Shown in pieces: positions 3,453-38,530 of a stretch of DNA of 64,000 bases (positions within the stretch are counted from its first letter, which is position 1; each line of letters starts with the position of its first letter). The notes beneath the pieces were generated by a model. The model made no database searches, was not told the origin of the DNA, and worked only from the letters and a program-made list of their open reading frames with translations. The translations under genes and the position numbers were made by a program. This DNA comes from an uncultured delta proteobacterium (lineage in GTDB: Bacteria > Desulfobacterota > Binatia > UBA9968), in assembly GCA_963816145.1 (NCBI GenBank), contig CAWFJP010000015.1, positions 165,940 through 229,939 of the forward strand, given 5' to 3'.

Positions 3453-3581
3453 AGCTAACGATCCGGCCCGATAAGGCTCGGCAAGCAAAAGCGTAGCTTC
3501 GATCCGCAAAAGCGGATCTTGGCCTGGGCTACGCCGACCGTGCGGACGGCGAAGCCTTTAAGTTGGCCTGAGTTGTTAGGT
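3453..3581 (-). repeat. attC site
   Basis: AGCTAAC ... GGCCCGATAAGGCT / AGCCTTTAAGTTGGCC ... GTTAGGT. Confidence 0.65.
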
Positions 3582-3850
3582 TTCGCCACTATTGCCTTGA
3601 ATGCAAGCGACCATATTGCCTTCCGTATCAAAGGCCAAGGCAACGAAACCGTATTGACCGATGGATGTCTTCTCTCGTTGCATGCGCCCACCGGATGCCG
3701 TAACCCGCTCCGTCTCTACGTCGCAATCCAAGCAAGTGGAGTAAACCAGCGTACTGTTTCCGCCGGACGGGAAACCATCCATTTTGACTAAGGCACCCGA
3801 GGCCCCCACACGGTCCATGGCCATCGGAAAACTCCACATCTCCAGTCTCA
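3576..3850 (-). pseudogene. VOC family fragment
   Basis: GASGALVKMDG...GGNSTLVY...KTSIGQYGFVALAFDTEGN; N-terminus missing. Confidence 0.6.
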
Positions 3851-3879
3851 GCGCTTGGCGAACTTGAGGTCGTCACCTT

Positions 3880-4430
3880 TGGCGCGGCGACCGTTCGCAC
3901 CAACTCGAGTCCGTGCAGGTTGTCGCCGACCCCATCGAACAACCGCTCGCCGCTGCCGAGGAAGCCGGCACGAGATTGATCTCCATCTCGTCCACGAGGC
4001 CGGCAGCGAGATACTGCTGTGCGGCACTCGCGCCGGCGCCGAGCGAGACGTCTTTACCGCCAGCGGCGCGCCTCGCCAGATCGAGCGCCGTCTCGATGCC
4101 GCTGGTGACAAACGTGAAGGTCTCCCGCCTTTAAGTTTAAGCGGTTCACGGGCGTGGTGCGTGAACACAAAACCGGGTGATGGAATGGCGGATCAACTCC
4201 CCACCAACCGGTCCATGGATTCTTGCCATCTCAAGGGCCGGGGTGGCCGCCAAACATGTTGCGCCCCATCACCGTGGCGCCGATGTTGGCGAGCGATTCC
4301 TCGACGACCGGGGTGCTTTCATTGACCTCGCCGCCTTCAAGGCCGAGAAGCGATCGCAACACGGCAAGTTGAAATACCCACTCATGCAGACGCCCGCCGC
4401 CGACAGTTTGCCCTTTGGCCCACACGCTTC
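3880..4430 (-). pseudogene. DHFR/RibD C-terminal family, frameshifted remnant
   Basis: NIGATVMGRNMFGGHPGP, FTHHAREPLKLKGG, AGLVDEMEINL in shifting frames. Confidence 0.65.
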
Positions 4431-4572
4431 CGTCTCAATGATACAAGGTATGCGGTTTGGCGGAGGTAGTTTTCGCAGCCATCGTCATTGAATCCAGAAA
4501 AAGCGAGCGCTTTCGGTTAAGGCCTTAACCGCCGTGTGCTTGCGGGTTCGATGGATAACAACCGACTCGACG

Positions 4573-5301
4573 CTAAAGTTCGAGATCCGCCAGGACTTCG
4601 TACCAGCTGTTCTGGCCCTTACGGACGGGGTCGATGTTTAGTTCTTGGCGCCAGACAGCGAGCGGCTTGTCGAGCCCTTCCTCCCAACGGATACCCATCA
4701 ACGGTTTGATGCGCTCGGCCATGTCCCAGCCGGCGCGCACCGAGTGGACTTGCTGCCCCCACCCTTCGACGCGCAACATGCTCAACGCGATGGCGCCGAG
4801 ATCGATGGTCATGAAAGCCGGGTAGCCGTATTGCAGCGCGGTGATCGCGATGACTCCCAGTTCGCCGGGACCGATCATGGAAAAGCCGGTGACAATGTGA
4901 TGAAAGTCGTGGGTCTTGCGCACGCGCATGGTGACGTAGTCGGTCTCCTCGTCGATGCTCGGGCGGTCGCCGTAGAAGTGGGCCGCATAGCCGAGGCGCT
5001 TCATCACCTTGGCGTAGACATAACCGAGGGAGTCGCGCGGATATGTAACTAACTCGTCAAGGTTCAGTTCAGGTCCCATGTATCGCTCTTCAATGCATTT
5101 CCGAGCCGGTGGGTCTGCGCGCATGCGCTCTATGCAGGTTTTCATCACAGGCCGGTTGCGGAAATGGTCCTCCAACCGCCCCACCGTGGCAGTGTCCTTG
5201 CCTTGGCCGAGCGCGAACTCCACCGTCATCTCAAACGCCCGCGCTGCCGGCACAGTGAGAGCAATCGCCTTTAGTGTGTTTTGCAAATGTTGGTAGCCCA
5301 T
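4573..5301 (-). CDS. Coq4 family protein
   Basis: YPRDSLGYVY, RVRKTHDFHHIVTGF...GELG (HDxxH motif). Confidence 0.75.
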   Translation of the reverse strand: MGYQHLQNTLKAIALTVPAARAFEMTVEFALGQGKDTATVGRLEDHFRNRPVMKTCIERMRADPPARKCIEERYMGPELNLDELVTYPRDSLGYVYAKVMKRLGYAAHFYGDRPSIDEETDYVTMRVRKTHDFHHIVTGFSMIGPGELGVIAITALQYGYPAFMTIDLGAIALSMLRVEGWGQQVHSVRAGWDMAERIKPLMGIRWEEGLDKPLAVWRQELNIDPVRKGQNSWYEVLADLEL

Positions 5302-5474
5302 TCGGGTCCCCTTTCGCGTTGGCGCCAATCATTAGGCCGATAGCCCATATAAGCACCCGATTCAACAGTTCGGCAGGCTCTGGCTTCACATCCGCACGGC
5401 GTATGGGTGCAGCGATTTCACGGCAGCCTGACGTTCGATATGAGGTAATGGTCAAGTTGGCGTGGTTCCATGTG

Positions 5475-5549
5475 TTCTAACTCCAGGCATCAGGCGCGGT
5501 GGGAGCGCAGCGGATACTGTACGCCGTCGCCGGCAAGCGTTTGTTAGGC
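5475..5549 (-). repeat. attC site
   Basis: TTCTAAC ... GTTAGGC downstream of ORF 5584..6105. Confidence 0.6.
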
Positions 5550-5583
5550 TGGCTACATTACCTGTACCAGTTACGCCGGCAAG

Positions 5584-6105
5584 TTAGCCGTGATTTGCAT
5601 ACTTGTACCTCAGGCCGAGACTTGTGGCGAATGCGCGAACGCGCGACTCTGCGATGACAGGGGCGATCCACATGCAGTTCGAAAACGCGTCCGGCCACTC
5701 AAGCAGAGCCAAGGAGTTGGCGTAGAGGAAGATGTGATCAAAGAGCTCAGGCTCGGCGTGGTGCAGCGAGGCGTTCGCAAGCACCTCACACAGCAGAGGC
5801 GCGAAGCGACAGCGGAACCGCAAAATGCTGCCGGTAGACCAGAGCGTCTGCGGCTTTGGCAGATATGGACCATCATCGACGTGTTGCTCGAAGATCCGCA
5901 CGATATCCGGAGCGATCGATGAACCTTCGAAGAAAACCGCAGTCGCTTCGGAAAATGCTGAAGAAATCGCGTGGAGAAATATCGCGCAGTCAACTGTACC
6001 TTCCTCGATCTCCCAGCATGGTCCCATCGGGAGCGAAAGCGGAATTTGCATTGAGCGTGGGGCGCGCAGCGTCGTTGGGTCTTGGCTAACGCTCGTCCGC
6101 TGCAT
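5584..6105 (-). CDS. Hypothetical cassette protein (true start probably downstream of attC 6084)
   Basis: ORF between two attC-like sites. Confidence 0.55.
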   Translation of the reverse strand: MQRTSVSQDPTTLRAPRSMQIPLSLPMGPCWEIEEGTVDCAIFLHAISSAFSEATAVFFEGSSIAPDIVRIFEQHVDDGPYLPKPQTLWSTGSILRFRCRFAPLLCEVLANASLHHAEPELFDHIFLYANSLALLEWPDAFSNCMWIAPVIAESRVRAFATSLGLRYKYANHG

Positions 6106-6118
6106 GCCGTTGTTGGGC
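6084..6118 (-). repeat. Minimal or internally deleted attC-like site
   Basis: GGCTAAC GCTCGTCCGCTGCATGCCGTT GTTGGGC. Confidence 0.45.
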
Positions 6119-6155
6119 GCGGATAGCGCTTGACCACATCCTGCTTGAACCTCGT

Positions 6156-8761
6156 CTAAGCAATAGCATTCTCCACCCGGGAGTAGAAATACTTCTTGGC
6201 CAACTCAGCGGCCAGGACGTAGAATGCCGTTAGTCCGAGCAATGTCAGCATGAGCGATGCGGGCAACGGGATGAAGCCAAACAGCGAACTGAACGGCAGA
6301 TACGGCAGTACGAGCGTAACGCCAATGAAGACCAACGTACTCACCAGCAAGAGCGTGCCCGGGCGGCTGCGGAAGAACGGATGGCGCGTGCGCACGACCA
6401 GCGCGATGACGAGCTCGGTCAACAGCGATTCGATAAACCAGCCGGTGCGAAACTCCACCGGCGCAGCGCGAAATAAAAACAACAATATCCCGAAGGTCAG
6501 GAAGTCGAAGAGCGAGCTGACCAGGCCGAAGAGCACCATGTAGTTGCGGATGAACTTGGTATTCCAGCGGCGCGGCTTTTCCACCCATTCCGGGTCGACA
6601 TTGTCGCCGGCGATGGTTATGCCGGGAATGTCGGAAAGAAAGTTGTTGAGCAGGATTTGTGAAGCGAGCAGGGGCAGAAATGGCAGGAACATCGAAGCGC
6701 CGGCCATGCTGAACATGTTGCCGAAGTTGGCGCTGAGTGGTCGTGAGAATGTACTTGAGTGTATTGGCGAACGTCCTGCGGCCTTCATCGATGCCCTCGC
6801 GCAATATGCCCAAATCCGTTTTGAGCAGGACAAAGTCGGCGGCGTCTTTGGCCACATCCACCGCGGTGTCCACCGAGAGGCTCACGTCGGCGGCATGCAG
6901 GGCCGGCGCGTCGTTGATGCCATCGCCCATATAGCCGACCACGTGCCCGGTCTTGCGCAGCGCAAGGATGATGCGTTCCTTCTGGTTGGGATCCACTTCC
7001 GCGAAGATCGTGGTGCGTTCGGCAAGATGCCAGAGGGCCTCGTCACGCAGGTCGGCCAGCTCACTGCCGGTCAACACACCCGTGACCTGCAACTTCACCG
7101 CCTCCGCGACGTGCCGCGCCACCTTCTGATTATCGCCGGTGACGAGTTTGATTTGCACACCGCGTTTCGCCAGATCGACGATGACTTGCTGCACATCGGA
7201 TTTTGGCGGATCGAAGAAGAGCAGAAAGCCGGCGAAAGCGAGGGCGTTTTCATCGGCGCGCGAATAGGCTTCAGGCCGCCCGTCTACCGTCTTCGTCGCC
7301 ACACCGAGCACACGGAAGCCTTTGGCGCTCCATTCACTGATACCGCTGCTCGATCCCTGCCCGCCTCGCCGCATCCAGCGGCCGGACTCCCTCCCCAGTT
7401 TGCACGCTGTCACAGATGCTCAGGACGTTATCCAGGGCGCCCTTGGTGATGAGAGTGCGCTCGCCTTGGGGACCGGCAGTGACCACACTCAGGCGCTTGC
7501 GCACGAAGTCATAGGGGATCTCGTCCACCTTTTGTTCGGCGCTGATGTCCGGCCCCGCCTGTAGCGCGTAAGCTTGAATCGCCTCGTCCAGAGGATTGTT
7601 CATACCGGTCTGGAAGTGTGCGTTGAGATAGGCGTAGCGCAGAACGGCCTTGGACGGTTGCCCCGTTGTATCGAGTGCGCCGTCGAGTCGGACGACACCT
7701 TCGGTGAGCGTGCCGGTCTTATCGGTGCACAGCACATCCATGCTGCCGAAGTTTTCGATGGAGTTCAGGTGGCGCACGATAACGCCGCGTTTGGCCATAC
7801 GCTGTGCCCCGTGCGAGAGCGTAATGCTGATGATGGCCGGCAAGAGTTCGGGCGCCAGGCCCACCGCCAGCGCGAGCGAAAAGAGCAGCGAGTCGATCAG
7901 CGGCTTGGCAAGGAAAAGGTTGACCGCCAAGACGATAATCACCATCACCAGCATGACCTGTGTGAGCAGATTTCCGAACCGATGAATGCCGCGTTCGAAC
8001 TCGGTCTCCAACCGGCGCAGGCTCAGCCGTAGGGCGATCTGGCCGAACACGGTGGCCTTACCCGTCTGGACAAGCAGCATCTGGGCGGTTCCGCTCCTGA
8101 CACTGGTGCCCATGAAGACGGAGTTGGTGCGTTCCGCCAGGCTGGCGTTCGCTGGGACCGTCCCCGGCTGCTTTTCCACCGGGAAGGTTTCGCCAGTGAG
8201 CACGGCCTGGTTGACAAAGAAGTCATTTGCCGCGAGCACGACACCATCGGCGGGGATCAGGCTACCCGCAGAGAGCAGTACCACATCGCCTGGCACTACT
8301 TGCTCGGAGGGCAGCATTTGCGGCTGACCGCCACGTAGCACGCTGGATTTGATAGTGATCCGTGACCGTAGTTTCTCGACGGCATTGCTGGCACGGTACT
8401 CCTGCGCGAAGCCAAGCACCGTGCTGCCGAGCACCACAGCCAGCACAATGCTGGCATCGGTCCACTCGCCGACAACGAGGGAGACAACCGCGGCGAAGAT
8501 GAGGATGAGAACAAGCGGGCTTTTGAACTGGTTCAGGAACAGCCCCAATGCGGTGGTCTGCTGTTGTGCTTTAATCGTGTTCAGCCCGTATCGCATCAGA
8601 CGTTGTTTAACGTCCGCTGGTTCAAGGCCCTTGTTGGTGGTGCGCAACGCGGCAAGGAGCTGCTCGGGCGCGCGGCTCCAATAAGCCGCCAGAGTTCCCT
8701 GGGCGTCCTGTTGCCCAGCTTGTGGCGGTTTGCGGGGAAAGAAACTGGCGAAGGGTTTCAT
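6156..8761 (-). CDS. mgtA: Magnesium-translocating P-type ATPase, two frameshifts (~7330, ~6740)
   Basis: LTGETFP, PELLP, DKTGTLT, PYDFVRKR, TGDN, GDGINDAPAL, SANFGNMFS across three ORFs. Confidence 0.85.
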
Positions 8762-8929
8762 CTCATTCGATTTCTCTGGAACACGTCTGGTTCCCATCTC
8801 CCGGAGGCAGCGGCAGGTTCATGGACAAGGAACAGCCTACCCTGGCTCGTTCACGAGCACTTGCGCATCACCGCCCAGCGTGACAAGCACCCCAAAGCCC
8901 CCTGTTGGGCGGTCCGGTTCACGCCATGG

Positions 8930-9532
8930 TTAGTCCTTCCGCGCGACGATTGCATAGCGTCCTTTATCATGCCCCGTTGTCGGTAGGTTCATGAATTCTC
9001 CAATGACAATTCGACAACCCAGGCCCTGAAGAATGCGACTCGTCTCCTCCGGAGTGTTTGAGTCGTAGAAAAACTCTTGCCCAAACATATGGTCGGTAAA
9101 CGGCGGCTGCTCAGAACCACCAACCGTAAGCATAATCTTCCCGCCTCCAGGGAGCGTCTCGACAACTCTGCGTAGTATTTTGGCGTGCGTTGCGCGGTCA
9201 ATGTGAAAAAGTGAATCCCAGACGATAGCGGCAGCAAATCCGATACTGAATTCGTACTGCTCAATGGGCGAGAGAATCCACCGCTCGCTTGGGAAGCGAG
9301 CCTTGGCCAGCTTTATGAGTTCCTCGGCCTGATCGATTCCGAGGACTTTATGCCCCCTGGAAATTACATACTCTGCCATCGGACGACCCGCACCACAGCC
9401 GACATCGACTACCAGAGAGTTATCCGGCAGATCAGCCAAAAGAATATCCAGGTAGTCTTTTTCTCGGCCGTAGAATTTTGTCCGGGCTTCATCCCACTGA
9501 CCGGCAATCCTATTGTAGGAAGCGCGGTTCAT
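8930..9532 (-). CDS. Class I SAM-dependent methyltransferase
   Basis: VVDVGCGAG, WDSLFHI. Confidence 0.85.
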   Translation of the reverse strand: MNRASYNRIAGQWDEARTKFYGREKDYLDILLADLPDNSLVVDVGCGAGRPMAEYVISRGHKVLGIDQAEELIKLAKARFPSERWILSPIEQYEFSIGFAAAIVWDSLFHIDRATHAKILRRVVETLPGGGKIMLTVGGSEQPPFTDHMFGQEFFYDSNTPEETSRILQGLGCRIVIGEFMNLPTTGHDKGRYAIVARKD

Positions 9533-9538
9533 ATGAAG

Positions 9539-9631
9539 GCCTAACGACCCAAGCCCAACGGCCCCGCCCATGAGGGGCCACGATTGCAACCACAATGCGA
9601 TGGCCGAGTTCGCCGCAGCGCAAGGTTAGGC
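9539..9631 (-). repeat. attC site
   Basis: GCCTAAC ... GTTAGGC. Confidence 0.7.
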
Positions 9632-9759
9632 ATCATCATCGTCATCTGTATCATGTCACTTCTGCTCGGCGTCGAGTCGCCAGCCGTCGTCGGTGTGGCC
9701 TTTGGCGGCGGAAGCTCACAATACGACTGAAAATCAATCATGCTCATGGTCCCACGCCA

Positions 9760-9925
9760 AGCGAGTGCCTAAATTCACAGACCCAGTGCAAAAGATATGG
9801 CTAAGGTGTTGCATGGAACACTACTACGAACAGTTTTCGCTTGAAGAGCGCTATACGGTTTCCCAACTTAGCCAAGCCGGGAAAACAATCCGCCAAATCG
9901 CGGCAGCTATGGATGGCGCGCCTAG
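9760..9925 (+). mobile_element. IS30-family transposase N-terminal remnant
   Basis: MEHYYEQFSLEERYTVSQLSQAGKTIRQIAAAMDGAPS resembles the IS30 N-terminal HTH; truncated. Confidence 0.6.
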
Positions 9926-10230
9926 CGCTTTTCCGGCGGTATGGATCTGATTGCGGCTGAAAACTCTGCATGAGCCACCGGATCAACCGGCCTATGCTTG
10001 ACCTTGGTACTCGCAGGGTCCTTGCCAAGAAAGTTGTCGCCTTTCCAGTTCCTTATCGGTCTGATCGGTCTCGGCACAAAGCCGCCCCCGCAGTTCGGGC
10101 AGACGTTTTCCAGGACGTTATCGACACACGTGGCGCAAAACGTACACTCATAAGTGCAGATGCGCGCTTCAAGCGAGTCGGGAGGCAACGCCTTGTTGCA
10201 GTTCTCGCAAGTGGGTCTGAGTTCGAGCAT
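9922..10230 (-). CDS. DUF1272 protein (copy 1)
   Basis: MLELRPTCENC...ICTYECTFC...CPNCGGGFVPRP. Confidence 0.9.
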   Translation of the reverse strand: MLELRPTCENCNKALPPDSLEARICTYECTFCATCVDNVLENVCPNCGGGFVPRPIRPIRNWKGDNFLGKDPASTKVKHRPVDPVAHAEFSAAIRSIPPEKR

Positions 10231-10310
10231 GGTGTCCCTCTATGACGACTAAGGTTCGCGATACGCAGCCGCGAAGAAGCGGTCCGGCCGATCGCGGGGC
10301 TGGGCATCGC

Positions 10311-11114
10311 CTAGTTCGCGACGACTGCTCGGACTGCCCAGGCCCGAGCGGATAACGAAATCGAACCGTCCGCTTGCAGCGGGATGCGCTCTCGCAGGCG
10401 ATCGCGTAGGCGCGTCCGCGCGGTCTCCTCAAGGGCCATCGCATACGCAGGTGCTGGTCCCTGGCCGCCGAGAAACGGCCGCCAGTAGTCTTCGAAAGTG
10501 GCAAAGCTCGTCGCGATGTCGATCGCCGTCACTTCGGTTCCGCCCAATCCTGCGCTCGCGAAAAGCTCAGTGAGCGCCTCCGGACGGCACAATGGGAAAC
10601 GGGCCCCTTCGTCCAGCTTCGCTGCGTCTGGATTGAGATCAATTGCCGCATCCCAGAAATGGCGCATCATCTCCATCCTTCCCGCGTAGTCCCAGACGTA
10701 CGCCGCGATCGTTCCTCCGTCAGTCGTTACCCGCGCCATTTCGCGTACGGCAGCGAGTGCATCTGGAACGAAGTTCAAGACGAACCCCGAAACCGCGACG
10801 TCGACGGACCGGTCCTCGAGCGGAATCTCCGCAGCACTGCCGCGCCGTAGCAGCACCCGAGCGCCAAGCTGCTCTTTGGCCTTTTCGAGAAAGCCTTCCG
10901 AAGGCTCGACGCCGATGACTGACAGGGGCGAACAATTGTCCAGAATCGCGGCGCTGAGCGCACCCGTGCCGCATCCAACATCGAGCCAGCGGCGCTGGGC
11001 AGGAATCTTCAACCATGCGAGAAACAGCGGCGCAACCCGACGGCTCCAGCGGCCGACATACTGCTCATACGGATCGCCTCGTTCCCACCTGTCCGAGATC
11101 TGCGTCGAAACCAT
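10311..11114 (-). CDS. Class I SAM-dependent methyltransferase
   Basis: WLDVGCGTGAL, AYVWDY. Confidence 0.9.
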   Translation of the reverse strand: MVSTQISDRWERGDPYEQYVGRWSRRVAPLFLAWLKIPAQRRWLDVGCGTGALSAAILDNCSPLSVIGVEPSEGFLEKAKEQLGARVLLRRGSAAEIPLEDRSVDVAVSGFVLNFVPDALAAVREMARVTTDGGTIAAYVWDYAGRMEMMRHFWDAAIDLNPDAAKLDEGARFPLCRPEALTELFASAGLGGTEVTAIDIATSFATFEDYWRPFLGGQGPAPAYAMALEETARTRLRDRLRERIPLQADGSISLSARAWAVRAVVAN

Positions 11115-11336
11115 GAGATCCTCACTTCAGCGACCCCAATATTAAGGCAACCGGTGCGGCTTTGCGTGTCCTAGAATTGTATGAGATTTACGATCTCTCC
11201 GGCAACATCGGCCGGGGTTTATTCATTCAAGAATAACACGGAGTCAGCCGGGAGCGCCCGGGCGATTGGCGTCAAATAAATTTGCATTCTGCTCCAATCA
11301 GCACCGAGGACATTCTTAATTTGGTCTCGTAGCTAA

Positions 11337-11396
11337 TCTCAACGTTTGAGTGAAGCCGCGCACGCCTGGCGCGCCCGCTTGAACGACGGGTCAGAC
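11337..11396 (-). repeat. attC site (degenerate core)
   Basis: TCTCAAC ... GAAGC / GCTTGAAC ... GTCAGAC next to the stop codon at 11402. Confidence 0.55.
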
Positions 11397-11401
11397 GACG
11401 C

Positions 11402-11812
11402 TCATCCGTTGATTGGTATGCCCAACTGACGGGCCTGGGATGCAGCGTCCCTGGCGCCCCAGCGGCGCTTGATCTTGCCGCTGTCAATCTCGAACCACTC
11501 CATCGCGACCAATTGATAAGATTTGCCGGTGGGCTGATTGCCAAACGCCGGCGCGCGGAAGGTTCCCGATTCGATATAGCGCGCCGCCACGACGTTGCCT
11601 TCCGCTACCAACCCTTCGATCTTGAGTTGCATGCCGTAGCCCTCAATCAGTTGCCGCCAGATGGGCTCGATCTTCTCGAAGACGCCCTTGCCAAAGACAC
11701 CTTGAATCTCGGCGTCCTCAGCAAGCAATGACTTCAGTTCGTTCAAATCGCCGCGATTAAATGCCTCGACATACTGGCGCACAACCTGTTTGGCTTCTTC
11801 CTCGATTGACAT
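11402..11812 (-). CDS. SnoaL-like ester cyclase
   Basis: VVRQYVEAFNRGD, LVAEGNVVAAR, PTGKSY. Confidence 0.85.
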   Translation of the reverse strand: MSIEEEAKQVVRQYVEAFNRGDLNELKSLLAEDAEIQGVFGKGVFEKIEPIWRQLIEGYGMQLKIEGLVAEGNVVAARYIESGTFRAPAFGNQPTGKSYQLVAMEWFEIDSGKIKRRWGARDAASQARQLGIPING

Positions 11813-11919
11813 GATCACTGCCGTTCCTGTTTGCCGTCTAACATTCGCGCTCGTCGGCGCGTCGTTTCGAACCACGTCGGCGGCAAGCAATGGTGAGCCG
11901 CCTTCGCAACCTTTTCATA

Positions 11920-29878: not shown

Positions 29879-29925
29879 GCTAGTCCGCCTTCTCCTTTCG
29901 TATGCCTAAGCCGACTTCGTGTGGC

Positions 29926-30149: not shown

Positions 30150-30590
30150 TTAGTCGTTGCCCCAACCGCTGACGACCTCGGGCCGCACCCGGAACTGCAC
30201 CCGTCGCTCTCCCGGGGCGCGATACGGGTATTCCTCGACTCCGAGATACTTCTTGGCAAGGCGGTTAATCCCTGCGCCGGCCCCCTGCTCTTCACTAGTG
30301 ACCTCGACCACGCGGCCGCGCAGGCCCAGGTTGCGGTAGGGGTTTTCAGGATCAAGGACACTGAGCGCGACGGGGCTCCCGAGGCGCAGGACGTTGGCCT
30401 TGGTCCGCCCCTCCGCTGTGTTGAGAATGATATCCTCACCGTCCAGACCCACCCACATCGCCGATACGTGAGGTGTCCCATCTGGCAAAACGATGCCAAC
30501 GTGAACGAGCACCTGCTTCTCGAGAATCTGACGCTCCTTCGCGGTCAACTGCCGATGCGCTACTGTCATGTTTGGATGCTGCAGAGCCAT
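30150..30590 (-). CDS. PPOX-class F420-dependent oxidoreductase-like protein (copy 2)
   Basis: Near-identical to 16811..17251. Confidence 0.85.
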   Translation of the reverse strand: MALQHPNMTVAHRQLTAKERQILEKQVLVHVGIVLPDGTPHVSAMWVGLDGEDIILNTAEGRTKANVLRLGSPVALSVLDPENPYRNLGLRGRVVEVTSEEQGAGAGINRLAKKYLGVEEYPYRAPGERRVQFRVRPEVVSGWGND

Positions 30591-30607
30591 CTCTCCTCCT
30601 CTGTCCT

Positions 30608-30665
30608 GTCTAACGCAGCGCTTAGGCGTCGCCCTTCGCGATCGCTCCGAAGCGGCTGGTTAGAC
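30608..30665 (-). repeat. attC site
   Basis: GTCTAAC ... GTTAGAC. Confidence 0.7.
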
Positions 30666-30670
30666 GCCCC

Positions 30671-30892
30671 TCAAGCAGCGTAACGAATCACTTCAAGCTC
30701 CGCAGTGCTGTCGCCTCGGGCGAGTAGGATGTCGATACGTGCCATGACGGCATCTTCGATCAGATACTCGCAGCAGGCTTCACACTGTAAAACCGGCAAT
30801 TGCTTCAAAATGACAATGCGATCGTCCGACAGTTTAAATGGTAAATCGGTGCTGATCGCATTCATGCGAGCCCCGCAAACCGTGCACTTCAT
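30671..30892 (-). CDS. YgiT-type zinc finger (MqsA-like) antitoxin
   Basis: MKCTVCG...VILKQLPVLQCEACCEY. Confidence 0.8.
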   Translation of the reverse strand: MKCTVCGARMNAISTDLPFKLSDDRIVILKQLPVLQCEACCEYLIEDAVMARIDILLARGDSTAELEVIRYAA

Positions 30893-31229
30893 CAGGTTCT
30901 CCTTCGAGTTTTTAGATCTGGCTCCCATTCCCCTAAGCTCGGATGATATGCTGTGACAATTCGAACGTTCTGACCGTCGACATCCGTACCAAACAGCACA
31001 TGAAACGCGTCGTCGCCCGCTCGCCCAAGAAGTAGATAGCTCGGAAAGTATTTGTCGTCTGGGTATGCCTCAACGATTTCGTAGCTGTTGGCGGCTGAGA
31101 TAATCGCTTCACGGGCAATAAACCTCCGTCCCAAGCGCATGTTAACATGGTACGTCCACAGAATCCGACCACCGCGAAGACACTCCGAATAAATGATAGG
31201 GGATCGGCAGGAAACTTACGTTCGGCCAC
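30892..31229 (-). CDS. DUF4258 toxin-like protein, frameshift near 31185
   Basis: WTYHVNMR..R, EAYPDDKYFPSYLLLG, RIVTAY.P. Confidence 0.75.
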
Positions 31230-31259
31230 ATTTCATATATAGCTGAAGTTTGTCGGATC

Positions 31260-31357
31260 GTCTAAGGCCTGAGTTCAGCTGCGGGCGAGTGCAACCAATG
31301 CGGCGGCGGAGCCGCCGCTCCCAAAGCTCGCCCGTCTGCTGCAACGCTTCGTTGGGC
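31260..31357 (-). repeat. attC site
   Basis: GTCTAAG...CAGCTGCGGGCGAG / CTCGCCCGTCTGCTG...GTTGGGC. Confidence 0.8.
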
Positions 31358-31413
31358 GGCTGCTGCAAGAACCTCAACCGTGCAGTGCACCCGCGAGATG
31401 CGTGCGTTCACCC

Positions 31414-32592
31414 TCATTGCTGCGACAGATGGTAGTGCGGGAGCACGATGTCGTCCCGAAGATCGCGGCCGATCACAAAGTCGGCGACCAAAGGGACTCG
31501 TAGCAGCTGTGTGATCACGTTGCGGAAGGTGATCCCGAACGAAGTCTTCGGTGCGAACGCCGAGGCAAACTTCTTCGCCGTTTGCTGCTTCTTCTTCAGA
31601 AACGGCATGAGCCGCCGCTCGTACCGCGCAAACGCCGTCGAGAAGTCGCCGCCGCAGGCGTGCAGTTCGCCCGCGAGAACATACGCCTCGACAATCGCCA
31701 GTCCCGTCCCTTCGCCGGCCATGAGCGACACGCAGGCCGCGGCGTCGCCGACCAGCGCGATCCGCCCATTCGTCCAGTGATGCATCCGAATTTGGCTCAC
31801 GCTGTCGAAGTAGATGTTGGTCGCCCGCTCGATCTCTGCCTCTATCTGCGGCCATTCCCAACCGGCGCCAGCAAAGACACGCCGCAGAACCGACTGCGGT
31901 TCCTCATGGCGGGGCATGAGCTCGTCGCGGAAGATGAAGAGGAACAGCGTCTTGTCATCGCGCATCGAAAAACGCGAGATCTGGCGGCCCGGCAGACTAT
32001 GAATCGTATAGACAAGCTCTTCGCGCGCCCGATACCTGTCCGCCTCGAACGCGGCGACGTGATAGCCGAGCGGGGTCTCGAACTCCGAGTCCGGCCCGAA
32101 GGCGAGTCGGCGGACGCGAGAATGCAGGCCGTCAGCGCCGATGACGAGATCGACTTCTCGTTCTGCCGCGTGGTCGAAGCAGACGCGCACGTGCTGCGCC
32201 GTATCCTCGATCTGGGCCACGGAATCGCCGAAGATCGTCTCGACCTTCCCGTCGATCGCGTCGTAGATGGTCGTTGACACGTCGGAGCGTCCCACACTCG
32301 TGAAGCGGTCGTTGGTCATCCGGCGAAAGACGTCGACATCGAAGCCACCTCTCGTCCGCCCCTTGCGATCGACGAAGCGCACCTCGCGCACTTGATATCC
32401 GAGGGCACGGATGTCGCCGATGAGGCCCATCCGCTCTGCGATATCGTAGCCGGTGCCCCAGAAATCGATGATGTAGCCGCCGACGCGAAGCTGCGGCGCC
32501 TCTTCAACGAGCAGGACCTCGTGCCCCGACCTGCTCAGCCAGTACCCGAGAGCGGGCCCGGCGACACCGATGCCGTTGATGACGATTCGCAA
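31414..32592 (-). CDS. FAD-dependent monooxygenase
   Basis: GIGVAGPAL, IGADGLHS, ALVGDAA..SLMAGEG. Confidence 0.9.
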   Translation of the reverse strand: MRIVINGIGVAGPALGYWLSRSGHEVLLVEEAPQLRVGGYIIDFWGTGYDIAERMGLIGDIRALGYQVREVRFVDRKGRTRGGFDVDVFRRMTNDRFTSVGRSDVSTTIYDAIDGKVETIFGDSVAQIEDTAQHVRVCFDHAAEREVDLVIGADGLHSRVRRLAFGPDSEFETPLGYHVAAFEADRYRAREELVYTIHSLPGRQISRFSMRDDKTLFLFIFRDELMPRHEEPQSVLRRVFAGAGWEWPQIEAEIERATNIYFDSVSQIRMHHWTNGRIALVGDAAACVSLMAGEGTGLAIVEAYVLAGELHACGGDFSTAFARYERRLMPFLKKKQQTAKKFASAFAPKTSFGITFRNVITQLLRVPLVADFVIGRDLRDDIVLPHYHLSQQ

Positions 32593-32613
32593 TGGACATC
32601 CTGTGGGTAGTCC

Positions 32614-32693
32614 GCCCAACGCCAAGAATGTGCGGCGGCGGCTATCAAGATATTCCTCACCGGGCCGCCGGCCGCACAATCCAATGGTTCGGC
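32614..32693 (-). repeat. attC site
   Basis: GCCCAAC...TGTGCGGCGGCGGC / GCCGCCGGCCGCACA...GTTCGGC. Confidence 0.8.
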
Positions 32694-32703
32694 GGCCCTC
32701 ATT

Positions 32704-33204
32704 TTATGAGTTTCTCGATCGTTTTAAATCGTTCTCGGATTTTATATCCACGGCATTCTGTGAAACCTGTTCAAACATCGCTGCCGCAGTGGCGATAACG
32801 GCAGAGCCGAAAGTGATGAGGATGCCCATAAAAACTCCGCCTGCGCGATCATCACTATTGCCCAACATAATGAAAAGTTCTCCTAACGCAACGAAACCGA
32901 TAATGGCTAACGCACAAAATTTTATTGTCCGCAGAGCTTTCACGGTCGCCTGCGAGAATGCCTTATCTTGTCCGATGTATCCCAACACCTTGAATGCCTG
33001 GTAGAGCGCCACGAAAAATGGAGTGGACGCCAAATACGCGTACGCCAAAAAGGGATCTTTAAAATAGATCTCAAAGAGCGTGGCGTGCGCGTTTCTGCCT
33101 TCAATGTGGGGCTCCCAAAGCATCAGAGCAAGAGCGCCAATGCCGATGAATACAATGACTACCTGAAGAAATATCGTTGGGCCTATTATCTTGGGTGATT
33201 TCAT
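32704..33204 (-). CDS. DUF2975 membrane protein
   Basis: FLQVVIV...ALYQAFKVL..I....AFS..TVKALRTIK...AVDIKSENDL. Confidence 0.85.
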   Translation of the reverse strand: MKSPKIIGPTIFLQVVIVFIGIGALALMLWEPHIEGRNAHATLFEIYFKDPFLAYAYLASTPFFVALYQAFKVLGYIGQDKAFSQATVKALRTIKFCALAIIGFVALGELFIMLGNSDDRAGGVFMGILITFGSAVIATAAAMFEQVSQNAVDIKSENDLKRSRNS

Positions 33205-33251
33205 GCAGTTATCAAGCCAATGACGAGTGACCGCATTTTCACTTTAAGGCC

Positions 33252-33332
33252 GCCGAACGTGAAGGCTGAACGGACGAGGCCAGCGAGCGAAGCGAGCGGG
33301 TCCGAAGATCCGTTTCAAGCCGTTTGGCGGAC
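33252..33332 (-). repeat. attC site (degenerate core)
   Basis: GCCGAAC...GGCTGAACGGA / TCCGTTTCAAGCC. Confidence 0.65.
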
Positions 33333-33367
33333 GTTGCAAATTCGCAGCTCCTGAACGTAGGTTAAAA

Positions 33368-33990
33368 TCACGCAGGTGCAAGCGCCTTGATCGCATTGGC
33401 CCGCGCTGAATAAGTGATGCGGCCATCGGGGCCAGCTGGCAATCTTGCGCGTACCCAGTCAATCACGTTCTCACGATCCGTCTCCGACAGTGCTGCAATC
33501 ATCTTGCCCATGGTAGTATAACTAGGCGTTTGCGACACCCAGAACTCGTTGAAATCCGCAAAGGACATCGTAACATCGATTGTCCTGCTGCCGATCTCTG
33601 TTAATTTCGCTCGAGCAAACAACGAAGTTAATGCATCAAGCCCCGAATGCTCGGTGCCCGGCACAGGCGGAGGTTTAGCGCCGACCTGATGCAATCCGTG
33701 CCGAATAAGGGAAACCGGCTCACGCTGCGCCGCGAAATCCCAAACATAGCCGGCGATTACACCATGGGGCCGACAAACGCGGCACATTTCAGTAAGCGCC
33801 TGAGGTCGATCCGAAATAAAGTTAATCACAAGAGCGGAAACAACGACGTCGAAGGCTTTATCTGAGAACGGTAATTCCTGCACGTCCGCAACGCGGAAAT
33901 CCGCACGTTGCGCGATTGCTTTCTTGCGCGCAATTTCGATTTGTGGCTCCGACGGATCGATCGCGACTACTGTCGCGGGAGAGCACGTAC
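33368..33990 (-). pseudogene. SAM methyltransferase, 5' truncated
   Basis: AIDPSEPQI...ELPFSDKAFDVVVSALVINF...GYVWD; motif I absent. Confidence 0.65.
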
Positions 33991-34050
33991 TGACAGCATT
34001 GTGTCTCCACGACAGGTCGACTGCGGAGTTTAACGCGAATCGTCGCTGCC

Positions 34051-34087
34051 GCCTAACGGGTCGTCCGTTGCAACCGGTTGGTTAGGC
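34051..34087 (-). repeat. Minimal attC-like site
   Basis: GCCTAAC GGGTCGTCCGTTGCAACCGGTTG GTTAGGC. Confidence 0.5.
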
Positions 34088-34146
34088 CGCACTGAGTTGC
34101 ACCTTTCGACACGCCAGCGGCGATGGCTATCTGGGGACGCGAGAGA

Positions 34147-34677
<531 letters not shown>

Positions 34678-34752
34678 GTCACTCCCTTTCCTCGCACGGC
34701 ACATCCGGCGGTTTTGAGCATCGTTGATGACTGAGACGTTGCGAGTTGTGCG

Positions 34753-34887
34753 GCCTAACGGGTCGGCGGGTGAGCCGTGGCCCGCAGGGCCATCGGTTCC
34801 ATCCGCTGGTTCGACCGCCGCAGGCGGGCGCAACCAGCGTGGCTCACCCGCCGACCCGTTCGCACGACCGTCTGCGGTCGGGCGAAC
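34753..34887. repeat. ORF-less compound attC module, copy 2
   Basis: AACGGGTCGGCGGGTGAGCC ... GGCTCACCCGCCGACCCGTT. Confidence 0.8.
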
Positions 34888-34892
34888 GGTCT

Positions 34893-34947
34893 CGCTAACC
34901 GGCGTGCGCTGACTTGGCGCGCGTCCGTGTTGAGCGGGTGGTTAGAC
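34893..34947 (-). repeat. attC site
   Basis: CGCTAAC ... GTTAGAC. Confidence 0.65.
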
Positions 34948-35221
34948 GTGACTTCGTCTCGCGCAAACGTCCCGAAACGTACTTATGCAGCACGCTCGCG
35001 ATCAGAGTCTGATAAGGAACTCCTTCCTCATAAGCACGAGCTTGAAGATCCATCAGGTCGGCTGCCGAAAGTCGGATGTTTACACGCTTGTTCTTCACAA
35101 AGGTGGCACGCGCAGCCTCCCGAAATCCGGCAAGTTGGGCTTTTGTTGGACGCGCAGATACCAGTACCCCGTTTTCATACGCGCCAAGTATCTCCCGCTC
35201 AAATCGGTCAAGTTTCTTCAT
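34895..35221 (-). CDS. CopG-like antitoxin
   Basis: KNKRVNIRLS..DL..LQ..A.EEGVPYQTLIASVLHKY. Confidence 0.85.
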   Translation of the reverse strand: MKKLDRFEREILGAYENGVLVSARPTKAQLAGFREAARATFVKNKRVNIRLSAADLMDLQARAYEEGVPYQTLIASVLHKYVSGRLRETKSRLTTRSTRTRAKSAHAG

Positions 35222-35501
35222 CGGTCTCTCCGCCTCCAAGATAGTCTCGCGTCGCCTTCCGGCTTGGAATGATGGTCTTCAGAAAATAATATGTTTTCTC
35301 TTCGACAGACGGAACGAGAAAAATATAGCTGCGATAAGCCACAACGAGCACAACCTGACCTGGGTACCGCCGCTGGTTCGGGTGAACGAGAACGTCCTTT
35401 AGGCCGTCTTCCTCAACCGCAGCGACGATTTCTTCAAAGGATATCCCACGCCCGGCCTTCAGCCGTTCGTTCTTATCCGGATCCCACCGGAACGGCTTCA
35501 C
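35208..35501 (-). CDS. BrnT-like toxin
   Basis: FRWDPDKNERLK..RGISFEEI...HPNQ..YPGQ...LKTIIPSRKAT. Confidence 0.85.
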   Translation of the reverse strand: MKPFRWDPDKNERLKAGRGISFEEIVAAVEEDGLKDVLVHPNQRRYPGQVVLVVAYRSYIFLVPSVEEKTYYFLKTIIPSRKATRDYLGGGETDEET

Positions 35502-35559
35502 AAAGGCATCATATCAGTATGTGTGCCTTTTGTCATCACCCTGGCACTACTGTGGTTAC

Positions 35560-35623
35560 GTCCAACGCTCCTGTTCAGCGGCGGGACGCGCAGCGGGCCG
35601 TCCGCTGCAACCGATGGTTAGGC
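35560..35623 (-). repeat. attC site
   Basis: GTCCAAC...TTCAGCGGCGG / CCGTCCGCTGCAA...GTTAGGC. Confidence 0.85.
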
Positions 35624-36094
35624 GTCATTGTGCCCTTGGCGCCGGAGTACAACATGGGTGGCTTTCTCCGACGCAACGAACTGAACGCATTCGTATCCCA
35701 GAGCGCGCACGTCAATCCCCTCGAACAGTCGCTCTCCCCCGCCCAGCAGGACCGGCGAGATAGCGACGTGCAGCTCATCGATGAGGCCCGTACGAAGATA
35801 TTGCTGGATCGTGTTAGGTCCGCCGCCAATGCGCACATCCATTCCGTTGGCTGCGTCGCGCGCCCGGTCAAGCGCCTCGTGAATACCGCCCGTGACGAAG
35901 TAGAATGTCGTTCCGCCTTCCATCTGGATGGGCGGGCGCGCGTGATGAGTCAAGATGAAAGTTGGAACGTGATAAGGTGGGTTGTCCCCCCACCAGCCTT
36001 TCCAGTTCATGTCGGACCAGGAACCGCGAATCGGTCCGAACATGTTTCTTCCGAGAATCCAGGCGCCAACATTCTTGAAGCCCCGCGCAACCAT
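35618..36094 (-). pseudogene. DHFR-family gene truncated at attI-B
   Basis: Begins ARGFKNVGAWILGRNMFGP; the family N-terminal SLDG segment is absent. Confidence 0.7.
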
Positions 36095-36095
36095 T

Positions 36096-36227
36096 GAGTG
36101 AACAGATCTCGTATATTGGATATCCAATAATCATCAATTTGAAACTACTCTTACAATCAATAAGTTGTCAATTGTCAGCGTTGCTCGTATATCCAATATC
36201 GCTGGTCTCGTATATTCAATATACGAG
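36096..36227 (-). other. Putative attI-B region with CTCGTATAT repeats
   Basis: Minus strand TATACGAGATCT-GTTCAC; CTCGTATAT at 36108, 36184, 36207 and inverted at 36219. Confidence 0.6.
36142..36171 (-). promoter_or_regulatory. Candidate cassette promoter Pc for array B
   Basis: Minus strand TTGACA-18 bp-TAGTTT pointing into the array. Confidence 0.45.
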
Positions 36228-36244
36228 CAGCACGGGACCACGAT

Positions 36245-37297
36245 TCACAGCCCATCCGCGGGGCTGCGCACGCCTTGGCCGCCTCGATTCAGCACATGGG
36301 TGTAAATCATCGTGGTACTTACGTCGTTGTGGCCCAATAGTTCTTGAACTGTTCTGATATCGTAGCCATTCTCCAATAAGTGCGTGGCAAAGGAATGGCG
36401 CAACGTGTGGCAGCCGGCATGTTTGAAAACGCCGGCTTTCAGCCGCGCCTCTCTAAACGCACGTTGTAGTACAGATTCGTGGAGATGGTGTCTGCGCCGC
36501 TCGCCGGTAATGCGGTCTACGAAATGACTCGTTGCCGGGAAAACCCACTGCCATCCCCATTCTTTCCCGGCATTCGGATACTTCCGGTCAAGCGCGTTGG
36601 GTAACGAAATTCGACCTAGACTAGCTTTGAGGTCGGCTTCGTGTTGCGACTTGACAGTTCGAAGATGCTCAATGAGTGGATCTCGGACTGTAGTTGGCAA
36701 GGGCGTATGGCGATCTTTGTTCCCTTTGCCGGCGCGAACCAAGATTTCGTTTTGATAAAAATCAATATCCTTGACGCGCAACCGGCAGCACTCCATCAAG
36801 CGCAAGCCAGCACCATAAAGTAAGATCACCATCAAGCGCGGAACGCCGCTCATATGGTTAATGATTTCCTTAACTTCGTCTTTCGTCAGTACGACCGGCA
36901 GCCGCTGCGGCCGCCTTGCGCGAACAACGCCGTCAATGAGTCCGATTTTCTTGCCCAAGACTTGATCGTAAAGAAATAAGATCGCGTTGAAGGCTTGGTT
37001 CTGCGTAGAAGCACTAACGTGCCCGTCCATCGCAAGGCTTGAAAGGAATTGGCCGATCTCTGCCTCAGCCATTTCCATCGGATGCCGTTTATTATGGAAA
37101 AATATGAAGCGCTTGATCCAATGGACATAAGCTTTTTCGGTCTTACCGCTGTAATGCCGCGTGCGGATCGCTTCGCGGACTTGGTCGAGCAACTTGGGCT
37201 TTGGCACAATCGGCGGTGTCCGCGTTCCGCTTTGCCCGCCATCGATCACAGCCAACGGTTGGTTCCTGGCTCTGCTTGCGTTGACGGTTTCCATCAT
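36245..37297 (-). CDS. intI: Integron integrase B
   Basis: Same catalytic motifs and [23 protein letters not shown] insert; [18 protein letters not shown]. Confidence 0.97.
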
Positions 37298-37350
37298 TGA
37301 CCGTCCTCCTCGCACGGCATGCGGATAAGCTTCCGCCAAGACGGCATGGC

Positions 37351-37396
37351 ACCGTTCAAATAGTTCAAATTGTTCAAGTCGTTCAAAACGTTGCAG
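37351..37396. repeat. 9-bp tandem repeat array, left arm
   Basis: accgttcaaa tagttcaaat tgttcaagtc gttcaaaacg tt. Confidence 0.9.
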
Positions 37397-37403
37397 ATCG
37401 GAT

Positions 37404-37820
37404 TTAAGGTGTCGCGCTTTTTAATTGGTTCGATGCCGTATACTTTGGGCCTTTCAAGGAACTGCGCTTTAGGTAGTCGATCAGGTTGCTGATCATAATG
37501 GATAGGCGACGAAACGATTGGCTGGCGGCGTCACAATCTTTCTGCGCGACATAGGATTGATCCAGGGCTACGTAAAGGTGCGAGCGCACTTCCCCGCAGG
37601 AGGCTTTGGCAACATAGAGAAATTGAATAAACTCTTGGTTCCCGCCGCGTTCGAATCCTTCGGCGATGTTCGACATGATCGACACTGCGGCCCGCCGAAT
37701 TTGATCCCGCAACGCAAAGTCCTTGGCAAAGTCACCATCCTTCGTCATTTGATAAATCGCTTTCGTAAGCAGTCGCGCATCTTTCCAAATCTCAAGGTCT
37801 TCAAAATTCTTCACTTCCAT
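37404..37820 (-). CDS. Four helix bundle protein B
   Basis: About 14 of 138 aa differ from 19555..19971 (manual count). Confidence 0.92.
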
Positions 37821-37833
37821 CGTCTCCTCCTCT

Positions 37834-37883
37834 TTAACGACTTGAGCGTTTTGAACGGAGCGTAGCGGTTGAACAATTTGAAC
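37834..37883. repeat. 9-bp tandem repeat array, right arm (inverted)
   Basis: ttaacga cttgagcgtt ttgaacgg...ttgaacaatttgaac; starts 3 bp after the lexA stop. Confidence 0.85.
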
Positions 37884-37886
37884 TTC

Positions 37887-38495
37887 TTAGAATTTTCGGA
37901 GCAGCCCGACAATTTTTCCGGCGATGCGGAACTCGCCTTCGGCGACGACGATGGGCGCGTATTTGTCATTTTCCGCTTTGAGCGTGACCACGCCGTCTTT
38001 TTTGTAGAAGCGTTTGAGCGTCGCTTCACCGTCGATCAGAGCGCAGACGATCTCGCCGTTCTCCGCCGTGGCCTGCTGCTTGACGATCACCCGGTCGCCA
38101 TCCAGGATGCCGGCGCCGATCATACTGTCGCCTTGGACTTGGAGGGCGAACTGTTTACCGCTGCCCATGTCGCTGGGAATCGATAAGAACCCTTCGGTAT
38201 TTTCCTCGCTCAAAAACGGCTTGCCGGCGGGGACCCGGCCGACAATCGGCACTTCGTGGGTGACGTTGATGACCGCCTTGCCGAGAGCATTGACGACTTC
38301 GATGGCGCGCTTGCCGACCCGGCGGATATAGCCCTTTTTCTCCAGCGCTTTCAGATGATCGGAAACCCCGTTGGTCGAAGCGATCTTGAACTTCCGGCCG
38401 ATCTCAGGGATCGACGGCGCAAAGCCCTGCTCGCGAATACTCTTCAAGAGAAAATCGTAGATCGCCTTTTGCCGGTCGGTCAGGGGCGTGAGCAT
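37887..38495 (-). CDS. lexA: SOS repressor LexA
   Basis: LTDRQKAIYDF, PSIPEIG, HLKALEKKGYI, VPAG cleavage site, GDSMIGAGI, ATLKRF. Confidence 0.95.
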   Translation of the reverse strand: MLTPLTDRQKAIYDFLLKSIREQGFAPSIPEIGRKFKIASTNGVSDHLKALEKKGYIRRVGKRAIEVVNALGKAVINVTHEVPIVGRVPAGKPFLSEENTEGFLSIPSDMGSGKQFALQVQGDSMIGAGILDGDRVIVKQQATAENGEIVCALIDGEATLKRFYKKDGVVTLKAENDKYAPIVVAEGEFRIAGKIVGLLRKF

Positions 38496-38501
38496 GAAGG
38501 C

Positions 38502-38530
38502 TATATACTGAAAATAATTTCAGTAGTCAA
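38502..38530 (-). promoter_or_regulatory. lexA promoter overlapped by a palindromic operator
   Basis: TACTG-AAAATAATTT-CAGTA at 38506-38525; minus strand TTGACT-17 bp-TATATA. Confidence 0.7.

Follow-up and report, generated by a model that had tools for sequence, protein, structure and literature searches.

The stretch of DNA analyzed here, called the window below, forms the final 64 kb of contig C15 in G000, a metagenome-assembled genome (MAG) of 7.8 Mb in 31 contigs, with 6.7% estimated contamination, from an uncultured bacterium of soil or wetland. Nearly every long open reading frame (ORF) from 3 to 47 kb of the window lies on the minus strand, and the order on that strand is lexA, 4HB-B, intI-B, array B, imuA, imuB, 4HB-A, higA, intI-A and array A, where 4HB stands for a four-helix-bundle gene, intI for an integron integrase gene and array for a run of attC sites (Table 1). 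A preliminary description of this DNA had proposed this one-strand order of ten elements, and it was borne out: family searches match every gene named. The stretch it had marked off also ends on features, at the -35 hexamer of the lexA promoter on one side (38530) and close to weak attC-like sites (3456-3578) on the other. Its claim that each intI gene follows SOS genes co-directionally and at short distance likewise held for both, the spacers measuring 66 nt between lexA and 4HB-B, 106 nt between 4HB-B and intI-B, 61 nt between imuB and 4HB-A, 76 nt between 4HB-A and higA and 14 nt between higA and intI-A (14-106 nt overall).

The last gene of the mutasome set, dnaE2, lies outside the window on the same contig and strand, 11.05 to 13.7 kb below the window start and about 30 kb past imuB. 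The locus thus consists of two integrons embedded in a lexA-imuA-imuB-dnaE2 locus, and this observed arrangement is real and far beyond chance. Searches of G000 with tblastn gave one copy each of lexA, imuA and imuB, two of intI, and a short intI fragment elsewhere on C15.

Two integrons of the inverted-integrase type

Each integrase exceeds the cut-off of TIGR02249, the integron-integrase model, by some 200 bits, and residues 38-347 of IntI-A align end to end with the solved chain of Vibrio IntI4 (2a3v_A, E 1e-88), including the segment between the catalytic boxes. Judged by their sequences, IntI-A and IntI-B are true integron integrases of the IntI subfamily. The two proteins are 74% identical, and the likely start of intI-B is an in-frame ATG at 37297, preceded by AGGAGGA. 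Two partial relatives of these genes were also seen. The short fragment on the same contig (C15:28719-28946, 155 kb off) is 49-61% identical to the IntI C-terminus, and a crude attC scan gave a small excess of matches in the 20-kb bin around it; a plus-strand ORF within array B (25789-26319) has the N-terminal SAM-like tyrosine recombinase domain only (PF13495, 69 bits) and is 27% identical to IntI-A.

The attC sites were located with covariance models built for this analysis, R1 from 18 hand-picked hairpins and R2 from 24 R1 hits, the model structure being supplied from single folds. Both strands of 84 kb (the window plus 20 kb below it) were searched, R2 with all filters off. R1 gave 24 matches at E<0.03 and R2 gave 25 at E<=0.03, all on the minus strand between 5475 and 35623; the best plus-strand match reached only 15.9 bits. 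The R2 hits fall into two groups, 18 between intI-B and imuA (array B) and seven downstream of intI-A (array A). The sites have GCCTAAC-type and GTTAGGC-type cores in the arrangement RYYYAAC...GTTRRRY and fold into imperfect hairpins in which one arm has additional bases. Single folds place these bulged bases at about positions 16 and 21-23 of the 5′ arm, the geometry of canonical attC top strands. Rfam at its gathering threshold gave no match in the window, and RNAalifold predicted no pairs on a MAFFT alignment of 18 attC sites. Three naive scans for core motifs and fold energy were too noisy (1202 matches genome-wide, many in coding sequence) and were used only for seed picking. Between the end of array A and dnaE2 (locus L003), neither model gave an attC site at E<=1, and for G000 we make no claim of an array extending as far as dnaE2. 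With intI and all attC sites on one strand and each array downstream of the intI stop, these are two sedentary chromosomal integrons of the inverted-integrase type.

The cassettes encode small enzymes of the usual kind and a toxin-antitoxin-like pair. Array B carries two RibD_C genes, a BrnT/CopG-like pair, a methyltransferase fragment, DUF2975, an FAD monooxygenase and a GDSL protein; array A carries PNPOx, GFA, AHSA1, cupin, glyoxalase, SnoaL, methyltransferases, DUF1272 and a split P-type ATPase. One PNPOx cassette occurs in both arrays (16784-17276 in A and 30123-30615 in B, 94.5% identical), and in both the homology begins exactly at the GTTAGAC R′ core of the preceding attC, which matches the expected cassette boundary. 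The P-type cation ATPase of array A (~890 aa, 6205-8797, between the attC sites at 9553 and 5475) is read in two overlapping frames around 7334-7413. In array B, a 132-nt repeat (28529-28660 and 34757-34888, 97% identical) forms a very stable hairpin of -89 to -100 kcal/mol in longer folds, and each copy is flanked by a pair of attC model hits; the repeat may represent either a composite attC of unusual length or a small mobile element in the array.

Behind each intI stop, 160-170 nt contain direct repeats and cassette-facing promoter-like hexamers and, immediately ahead of the first cassette ORF, a GTT core. Behind intI-B, TTGACA (36166-36171) is followed after 18 nt by TAGTTT (36142-36147), and the candidate attI-B core is GGTT|GCGC at 36085-36092. 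Behind intI-A, TTTACA (18025-18030) is followed after 18 nt by TAAAAG (18001-18006), with the candidate attI-A core GTTAGGC at 17914-17920. The regions are of two types, A common to L063, L065 and L066 and B common to L064, L068 and L072. A TTGACA or TTTACA hexamer followed after 17/18 nt by an A/T-rich hexamer lies 35-85 nt past the intI stop in 11 of 14 loci, compared with a mean of 0.19 in shuffles and 1/14 on the reverse strand, for a pattern set after viewing the sequences. This is suggestive of a candidate cassette promoter, and we infer attI and promoter roles for these regions. The first cassette of array B (35618-36092) holds a 5′-truncated RibD_C gene without the ~30 first profile positions; metagenome and metatranscriptome contigs with a fuller RibD_C gene, and contigs of runs X16 and X17, part from the window at precisely the position proposed as the attI-B crossover (36089). 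With such a promoter-like element behind each intI, the cassettes could be expressed independently of read-through.

Each 4HB gene occupies the loop of a long stem whose two arms are runs of a 9-nt repeat in inverted orientation (GTTCAAnnn / nnnTTGAAC). Pairing of the arms is predicted at -36.1 kcal/mol for 4HB-B and -53.4 kcal/mol for 4HB-A, and the stem closes the ORF in the minimum-free-energy fold of segments of 556-562 nt. Among relatives, these cassettes are present or absent at the same operon slots, and the run lexA-4HB-imuA, without any intI, is found in G008, G017, L063, L074 and L076, indicating that 4HB is not part of the integron module. They resemble the ORF-bearing intervening sequences of 23S rRNA, which likewise have a PF05635 gene in the loop of a long stem of inverted tandem repeats; here, however, they sit in an mRNA operon and not in rRNA, and the arms are a 9-nt repeat with about 80 occurrences in G000. 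These occurrences are runs of at least three GTTCAAnnn / TTGAACnnn units spread over the 7.8 Mb of the genome, often as inverted pairs, like a REP family; six of the runs fall in the 19 kb from lexA to intI-A, and upstream of the lexA promoter (38541-38668) the repeat forms an empty hairpin.

The preliminary description had read 4HB, intI and attI as one module that entered the operon twice. This did not stand, because 4HB is a separate hairpin-enclosed cassette found without intI and because IntI-A and IntI-B are not sisters: each groups with imuB-side integrases of other genomes, IntI-B with L072 and L068 and IntI-A with L063. A tandem duplication of a 4HB-intI module was rejected as well, as DNA identity is 86% for 4HB vs. 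70-75% for intI and the integrase proteins are not sisters; the 4HB-A and 4HB-B proteins are 90% identical.

Table 1. Features of the lexA-imuA-imuB-dnaE2 locus and its two integrons (window positions, except where contig C15 is named)
Feature	Position	Strand	Evidence or detail
lexA promoter	38501..38530	-	-35 TTGACT 38525-38530; palindrome 38508-38523; -10 TATATA 38502-38507
lexA, 202 aa	37887..38495	-	TIGR00498, 210.7 bits vs cut-off 110.95; PF01726, PF00717
4HB-B cassette	37340..37886 (gene 37404-37820)	-	PF05635, 117 bits; TIGR02436; repeat arms
intI-B	36245..37339	-	TIGR02249, 465.6 bits vs cut-off 265
intI-B-to-cassette region	36085..36244	-	ATATACGAG direct repeats x3; promoter-like pair; candidate attI-B core
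Array B	22293..35623	-	18 attC model hits
Array B attC starts	35560, 34881, 34753, 34028, 33252, 32614, 31260, 30608, 29926, 28653, 28525, 27231, 26615, 25597, 25138, 24558, 23343, 22293	-	model hits
imuA leader, 156 nt	22137..22292	-	last attC (R′ GTTAAAT) to imuA ATG
imuA-like, RecA-related	21540..22199	-	PF00154, 33 bits; NF033429, 25.6 bits vs cut-off 150
imuB, Y-family polymerase-like	20033..21664	-	PF00817 (IMS domain), 41.5 bits
4HB-A cassette	19479..20032 (gene 19555-19971)	-	PF05635, 116 bits; inverted 9-nt repeat arms
higA-like HTH gene	19179..19478	-	TIGR02607, 77.7 bits vs 47.7
intI-A	18082..19164	-	TIGR02249, 468 bits; 2a3v_A, E 1e-88
intI-A-to-cassette region	17914..18081	-	ATATACAGAAG-type repeats; promoter-like pair; candidate attI-A core
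Array A	3456..17366	-	seven attC model hits and weaker sites by eye
Array A attC starts	17269, 16345, 15341, 14854, 14376, 9553, 5475	-	model hits
Weaker attC-like sites, array A	~13785-13850, 11340-11411, 10247-10305, 3456-3578	-	by eye only
dnaE2	C15:152235-154889	-	PHP, Pol III alpha, finger and HHH domains; outside the window

The mutasome operon and its forms among relatives

Queries with imuB and intI were run on 41 genomes including G000, 30 of which contain imuB; stretches of 20-80 kb around imuB were then taken from 12 genomes and their genes placed by tblastn. Uninterrupted operons were found in G037 and G038, which belong to another family and have a contiguous lexA-imuA-imuB-dnaE2, and in G008 of the same genus as G000 (lexA-4HB-imuA-imuB-higA-dnaE2, integron-free). 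Other members of the genus carry intI at one place or another: G017 has lexA-4HB-imuA-imuB-4HB-higA followed by an intI fragment, G006 has imuA-imuB-4HB-higA-intI, and G014 has the same order as G006, about 32 kb before dnaE2. The operon is interrupted in G014, in G018 (lexA-intI, 3 kb, imuA-imuB-4HB-higA, 4 kb, dnaE2) and in G003 and G019, where an intI remnant behind lexA is followed by 13-20 kb of attC sites before imuA. In a third family (G027, G029), the order is imuA-imuB-dnaE2-intI. The synteny comparison thus gives both the uninterrupted operon and the interrupted forms that the preliminary description, with its notion of an operon entered by integrons, would lead one to look for. Across 780 kb from relatives, the attC model gave 69 matches at E<0.01, all 69 on the local operon strand, and these sites lie between lexA and imuA, behind intI or just before dnaE2.

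Both imuB and intI were matched in 16 of the 41 genomes. Ten of these, among them the unpublished G005, have the two matches no more than 15 kb apart on a single contig and strand; the remaining six comprise G008, with its intact operon, and for the most part fragmented assemblies. An IntI alignment was also used as query against a public collection of species representatives: of the 80 closest loci, 16 have intI adjoining lexA, imuA, imuB or dnaE2, always co-directionally, and the whole run from lexA to intI is contiguous in L063, L064, L074, L076 and L077. These 80 loci (L numbers) overlap with the genomes above (G numbers), so that the two counts are not additive. In a quick maximum-likelihood tree of 37 IntI sequences, with 45 of the 80 loci left out as split or short matches or as more distant, all SOS-linked integrases fall within one clade (SH-aLRT 98), and the lexA-side position of intI requires at least three changes. 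We regard it as highly probable that a co-directional linkage of intI to lexA, imuB or dnaE2 is conserved throughout this lineage.

The junctions themselves recur. Those between lexA, 4HB and the intI remnant, and between the last attC (GTTAAAT), a leader of ~150 nt and imuA, are nearly base-identical in G003 and G019; the latter junction is common to G000, G003 and G019, which indicates that integron B predates these species. At the other end of the operon, G014 (L028 3726-4808) has a 5′ fragment of dnaE2 (codons 5-55, 90% identical) between two attC sites directly upstream of full dnaE2, and the integrase may have acted there at the edge of dnaE2.

The operon genes of G000 have the domains of ImuA, ImuB and DnaE2 and, in relatives, form compact operons, which places them in the imuA-imuB-dnaE2 cassette, with the provisos that imuA scores below the NF033429 cut-off and that the dnaE2 frame is broken. 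LexA has, by eye, the A-G cleavage site, the GDSM serine and the LKRF lysine. The likely start of imuA is the ATG at 22136, and every relative compared has an imuA-like gene ahead of imuB. The open frame of imuB spans 543 aa and includes a run of the 9-nt repeat (20306-20360) that is in frame and encodes (LNx)n. The dnaE2 frame shifts three times near codon 860-930, in the C-terminal HHH/OB part (C15:152070-152400; L003 ~6070-6400); imuB and dnaE2 of G019 are likewise in pieces. The higA-like gene has no adjoining toxin gene, and it is kept behind imuB or 4HB in G003, G006, G008, G014, G017, G018 and G019.

Regulatory signals and the possible SOS control of intI

A LexA-box-like palindrome, CTGAAATTATTTTCAG, at 38508-38523 fills the gap between the -35 and -10 hexamers of the lexA promoter. 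The sequence TTGAC(T/A)(A/C)CTGAAA-N4-TTTCAGTATA is found upstream of lexA in 16/16 genus-level loci, and each of the six genus-level loci whose scanned stretch included lexA has exactly one perfect copy of the palindrome; in G037 and G038, from the other family, this position is taken by a different palindrome. The lexA promoter copy is the only one without mismatches in the window. With up to 2 mismatches, CTGAAA-N4-TTTCAG occurs in the window at this site (38508) and at 39836, inside a neighboring VWA gene, and no copy lies near either intI, where a LexA box at the intI promoter would be expected from class 1 and Vibrio integrons. The imuA leader, common to G000, G003, G019 and in part G014, holds a relic of the box with 3 mismatches in G000 (CTGAAGCTGTTGTCGG) and a box with 2 mismatches in G014. 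In G000 and relatives the -10 hexamer ends 6 nt before the lexA ATG and, from this promoter position, the lexA mRNA is probably leaderless. The preliminary description had proposed read-through from the SOS genes into intI, and consensus scans of the gene strand are compatible with this, as they gave no terminator-like or sigma-70-like site from lexA to intI-B or from imuB to intI-A.

The comparative data give good support to the co-directional nesting of inverted-integrase integrons in the SOS mutasome locus. The best explanation, which we hold to be moderately probable, is that intI, having no SOS box of its own in this lineage, would be expressed as the distal gene of a LexA-repressed mutasome transcript. 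DNA damage would lead to self-cleavage of LexA and so open the lexA promoter, from which transcription would then run through lexA, 4HB and intI-B; in the simpler relatives the transcript would be lexA-(4HB)-imuA-imuB-(4HB)-(higA)-intI. Error-prone synthesis and cassette excision or integration would in this way be switched on together, and the cassettes would be read from the separate promoter-like element between the intI stop and attI. In G000, a 14-kb array B would have grown between the lexA promoter and imuA, leaving the imuAB-4HB-higA-intI-A unit and the distant dnaE2 probably weakly SOS-controlled, if at all. Read-through SOS control is thus plausible for intI-B only in G000, and it is reasonable for the compact relatives as well: co-transcription of intI-B with the SOS genes appears reasonably likely, and SOS control of intI-A is doubtful. 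More tentatively, the LexA-controlled mutasome operon of this lineage may have taken in intI as one of its structural genes, so that a single damage-induced and probably leaderless transcript would start error-prone synthesis and cassette shuffling at once, with the growing array progressively uncoupling the distal imuAB, the second intI and dnaE2, a built-in conflict that would explain the frequent decay of intI.

Several points weigh against this explanation. That the palindrome is the LexA operator is suggested by its conservation and position only. Genome-wide, CTGAAA-N4-TTTCAG with <=2 mismatches gave 261 matches and no recognizable SOS gene set, no such box was found upstream of recA, and a search for CTG-N10-CAG with an AT-rich spacer was equally uninformative. 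The LexA box lies 16.4 kb from imuA and 19.3 kb from intI-A in G000, and at such distances SOS control of either is doubtful. Read-through transcripts could be blocked or processed by the 4HB stems, and the promoter-like element behind each intI suggests that parts of the locus may be transcribed independently. The frame breaks of dnaE2 may reflect decay or long-read indel error. The intI gene is decayed in G003, G017 and G019 and absent from the operon of G008, which argues against strong selection; moreover, the relatives are kin, and many of the linked loci may stem from one or a few insertions. In RNA runs, finally, cover was patchy and the contigs were short and mostly 90-95% alike, and thus from relatives: six runs contained 10-14% of the sampled words of 35500-38700, and four metatranscriptome runs were compared with 18600-38599, where stretches lacking cover are uninformative. 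A 284-nt contig of X15 covers 37234-37478 (the end of 4HB-B and the start of intI-B), and a 210-nt contig of X16 covers 36098-36307 (the intI-B stop and the promoter-like region) with no differences. Such two-gene RNA contigs were set aside as support for co-transcription, since they do not show a single transcript and DNA carry-over is possible; contig joints that skip the 4HB ORFs were discarded as well, their sides measuring 21-27 letters in repeat DNA.

The linkage could also be a historical accident, in which one or a few insertions of an integron into or next to an ancestral mutasome operon were inherited vertically, with intI and the cassettes driven by promoters of their own, so that the linkage has no regulatory meaning and the growing arrays damage the operon. 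The linked loci seen here do all come from a single IntI clade and a single order-level group, there is a promoter-like element behind intI, intI is degraded or missing in G003, G008, G017 and G019, and the arrays of G000 separate the LexA box from imuA, intI-A and dnaE2 by 16-50 kb. However, intI is found in three slots (behind lexA/4HB, behind imuB/4HB/higA and behind dnaE2), always co-directional and close, the IntI tree implies at least three origins of the lexA-side position, and we found no intI-specific promoter-like site or LexA box; overall we consider an accident rather unlikely.

We hold it to be very unlikely that the mutasome is no longer functional and the region a tolerated dump for cassettes and hairpin elements. 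The three frame changes in dnaE2, the 9-nt repeat run within imuB, the low score of imuA against NF033429 and the split P-type ATPase of array A would fit such decay, but none of lexA, imuA, imuB and the two intI genes is shorter than full length, the repeat in imuB is in frame, and the same weak imuA type is kept in relatives with intact compact operons. Frame breaks are present in other genes of these MAGs too (imuB and dnaE2 in G019), suggesting indel errors. Still less credible, and in our view close to excluded, is an assembly or binning artefact that joined unrelated pieces. Although the number of contigs, the estimated contamination and the repeat-rich arrays leave room for one, the whole 50-kb region is on one contig, the lexA-4HB-intI remnant and last attC-leader-imuA junctions recur almost base for base in G003 and G019, and 39-51% of the words sampled from 35500-38700 are present in each of 14 DNA runs (X1-X14), which come from nine studies.

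To our knowledge, the only form of SOS control described for integrons is a LexA box in the promoter of intI itself, mainly in Proteobacteria. LexA (SOS)-controlled integrases of class 1 and Vibrio chromosomal integrons were reportedly described by Guerin et al. in 2009, and the imuA-imuB-dnaE2 set, as a damage-inducible cassette often found with lexA, was reportedly described by Erill et al. in 2006. According to excerpts of Cambray et al. 2011 (PMC3108266), integrase expression in class 1 and Vibrio integrons is likewise tied to the damage response via LexA, but the LexA box there overlaps the promoter of intI, which diverges from the cassettes, whereas here no box lies by intI, which is distal and co-directional; the words imuA, dnaE2 and operon are absent from those excerpts. 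The inverted-integrase layout is a known integron type and has the same one-strand intI and attC with the array downstream of the intI stop (PMC13323075, PMC3575428, both in excerpt); these integrons differ from ours in that the excerpts gave no description of nesting in an SOS operon, and in our locus the 160-170 nt past each intI stop contain a candidate attI together with a promoter-like element. The imuA-imuB-dnaE2 (imuABC) set is described as a damage-inducible mutagenesis cassette, often with lexA, in the parts available of an SOS review that treats imuABC and integrons separately there (PMC9578287). Its genes and their order are those of our locus, and the compact form headed by a LexA box is present in G037, G038 and G008; in G000, by contrast, it is split by two ~14-kb arrays, two 4HB hairpin cassettes and a higA-like gene, with dnaE2 far past imuB. 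Among titles and abstract openings we found no description of an integron inside or fused to an imuABC operon, nor any paper on Binatota integrons, and supplementary neighborhood tables could hold such cases.

If intI is indeed expressed from the LexA-repressed mutasome transcript, one stress switch may govern both point mutagenesis and gene shuffling, and the two main bacterial routes to stress-induced variation would be coupled physically and probably transcriptionally. The relatives, which range from the compact operon to one with intI added, one split by arrays and one with decayed intI, would provide a natural experiment on the gain and loss of this coupling, and the locus offers a candidate LexA operator and candidate attI sites open to direct testing.

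Two further observations were made at the flanks of the locus. Upstream of lexA, a 25-nt palindrome (GTCTAAC-N11-GTTAGAC, 38661-38685) overlaps the stop codon of the VWA gene; it has attC-like cores with nearly no stem interior and scores ~14 bits on both strands. At the other end, between array A and dnaE2, a gene at L003 17912-19093 encodes a TIR domain fused to an FGE-sulfatase domain.

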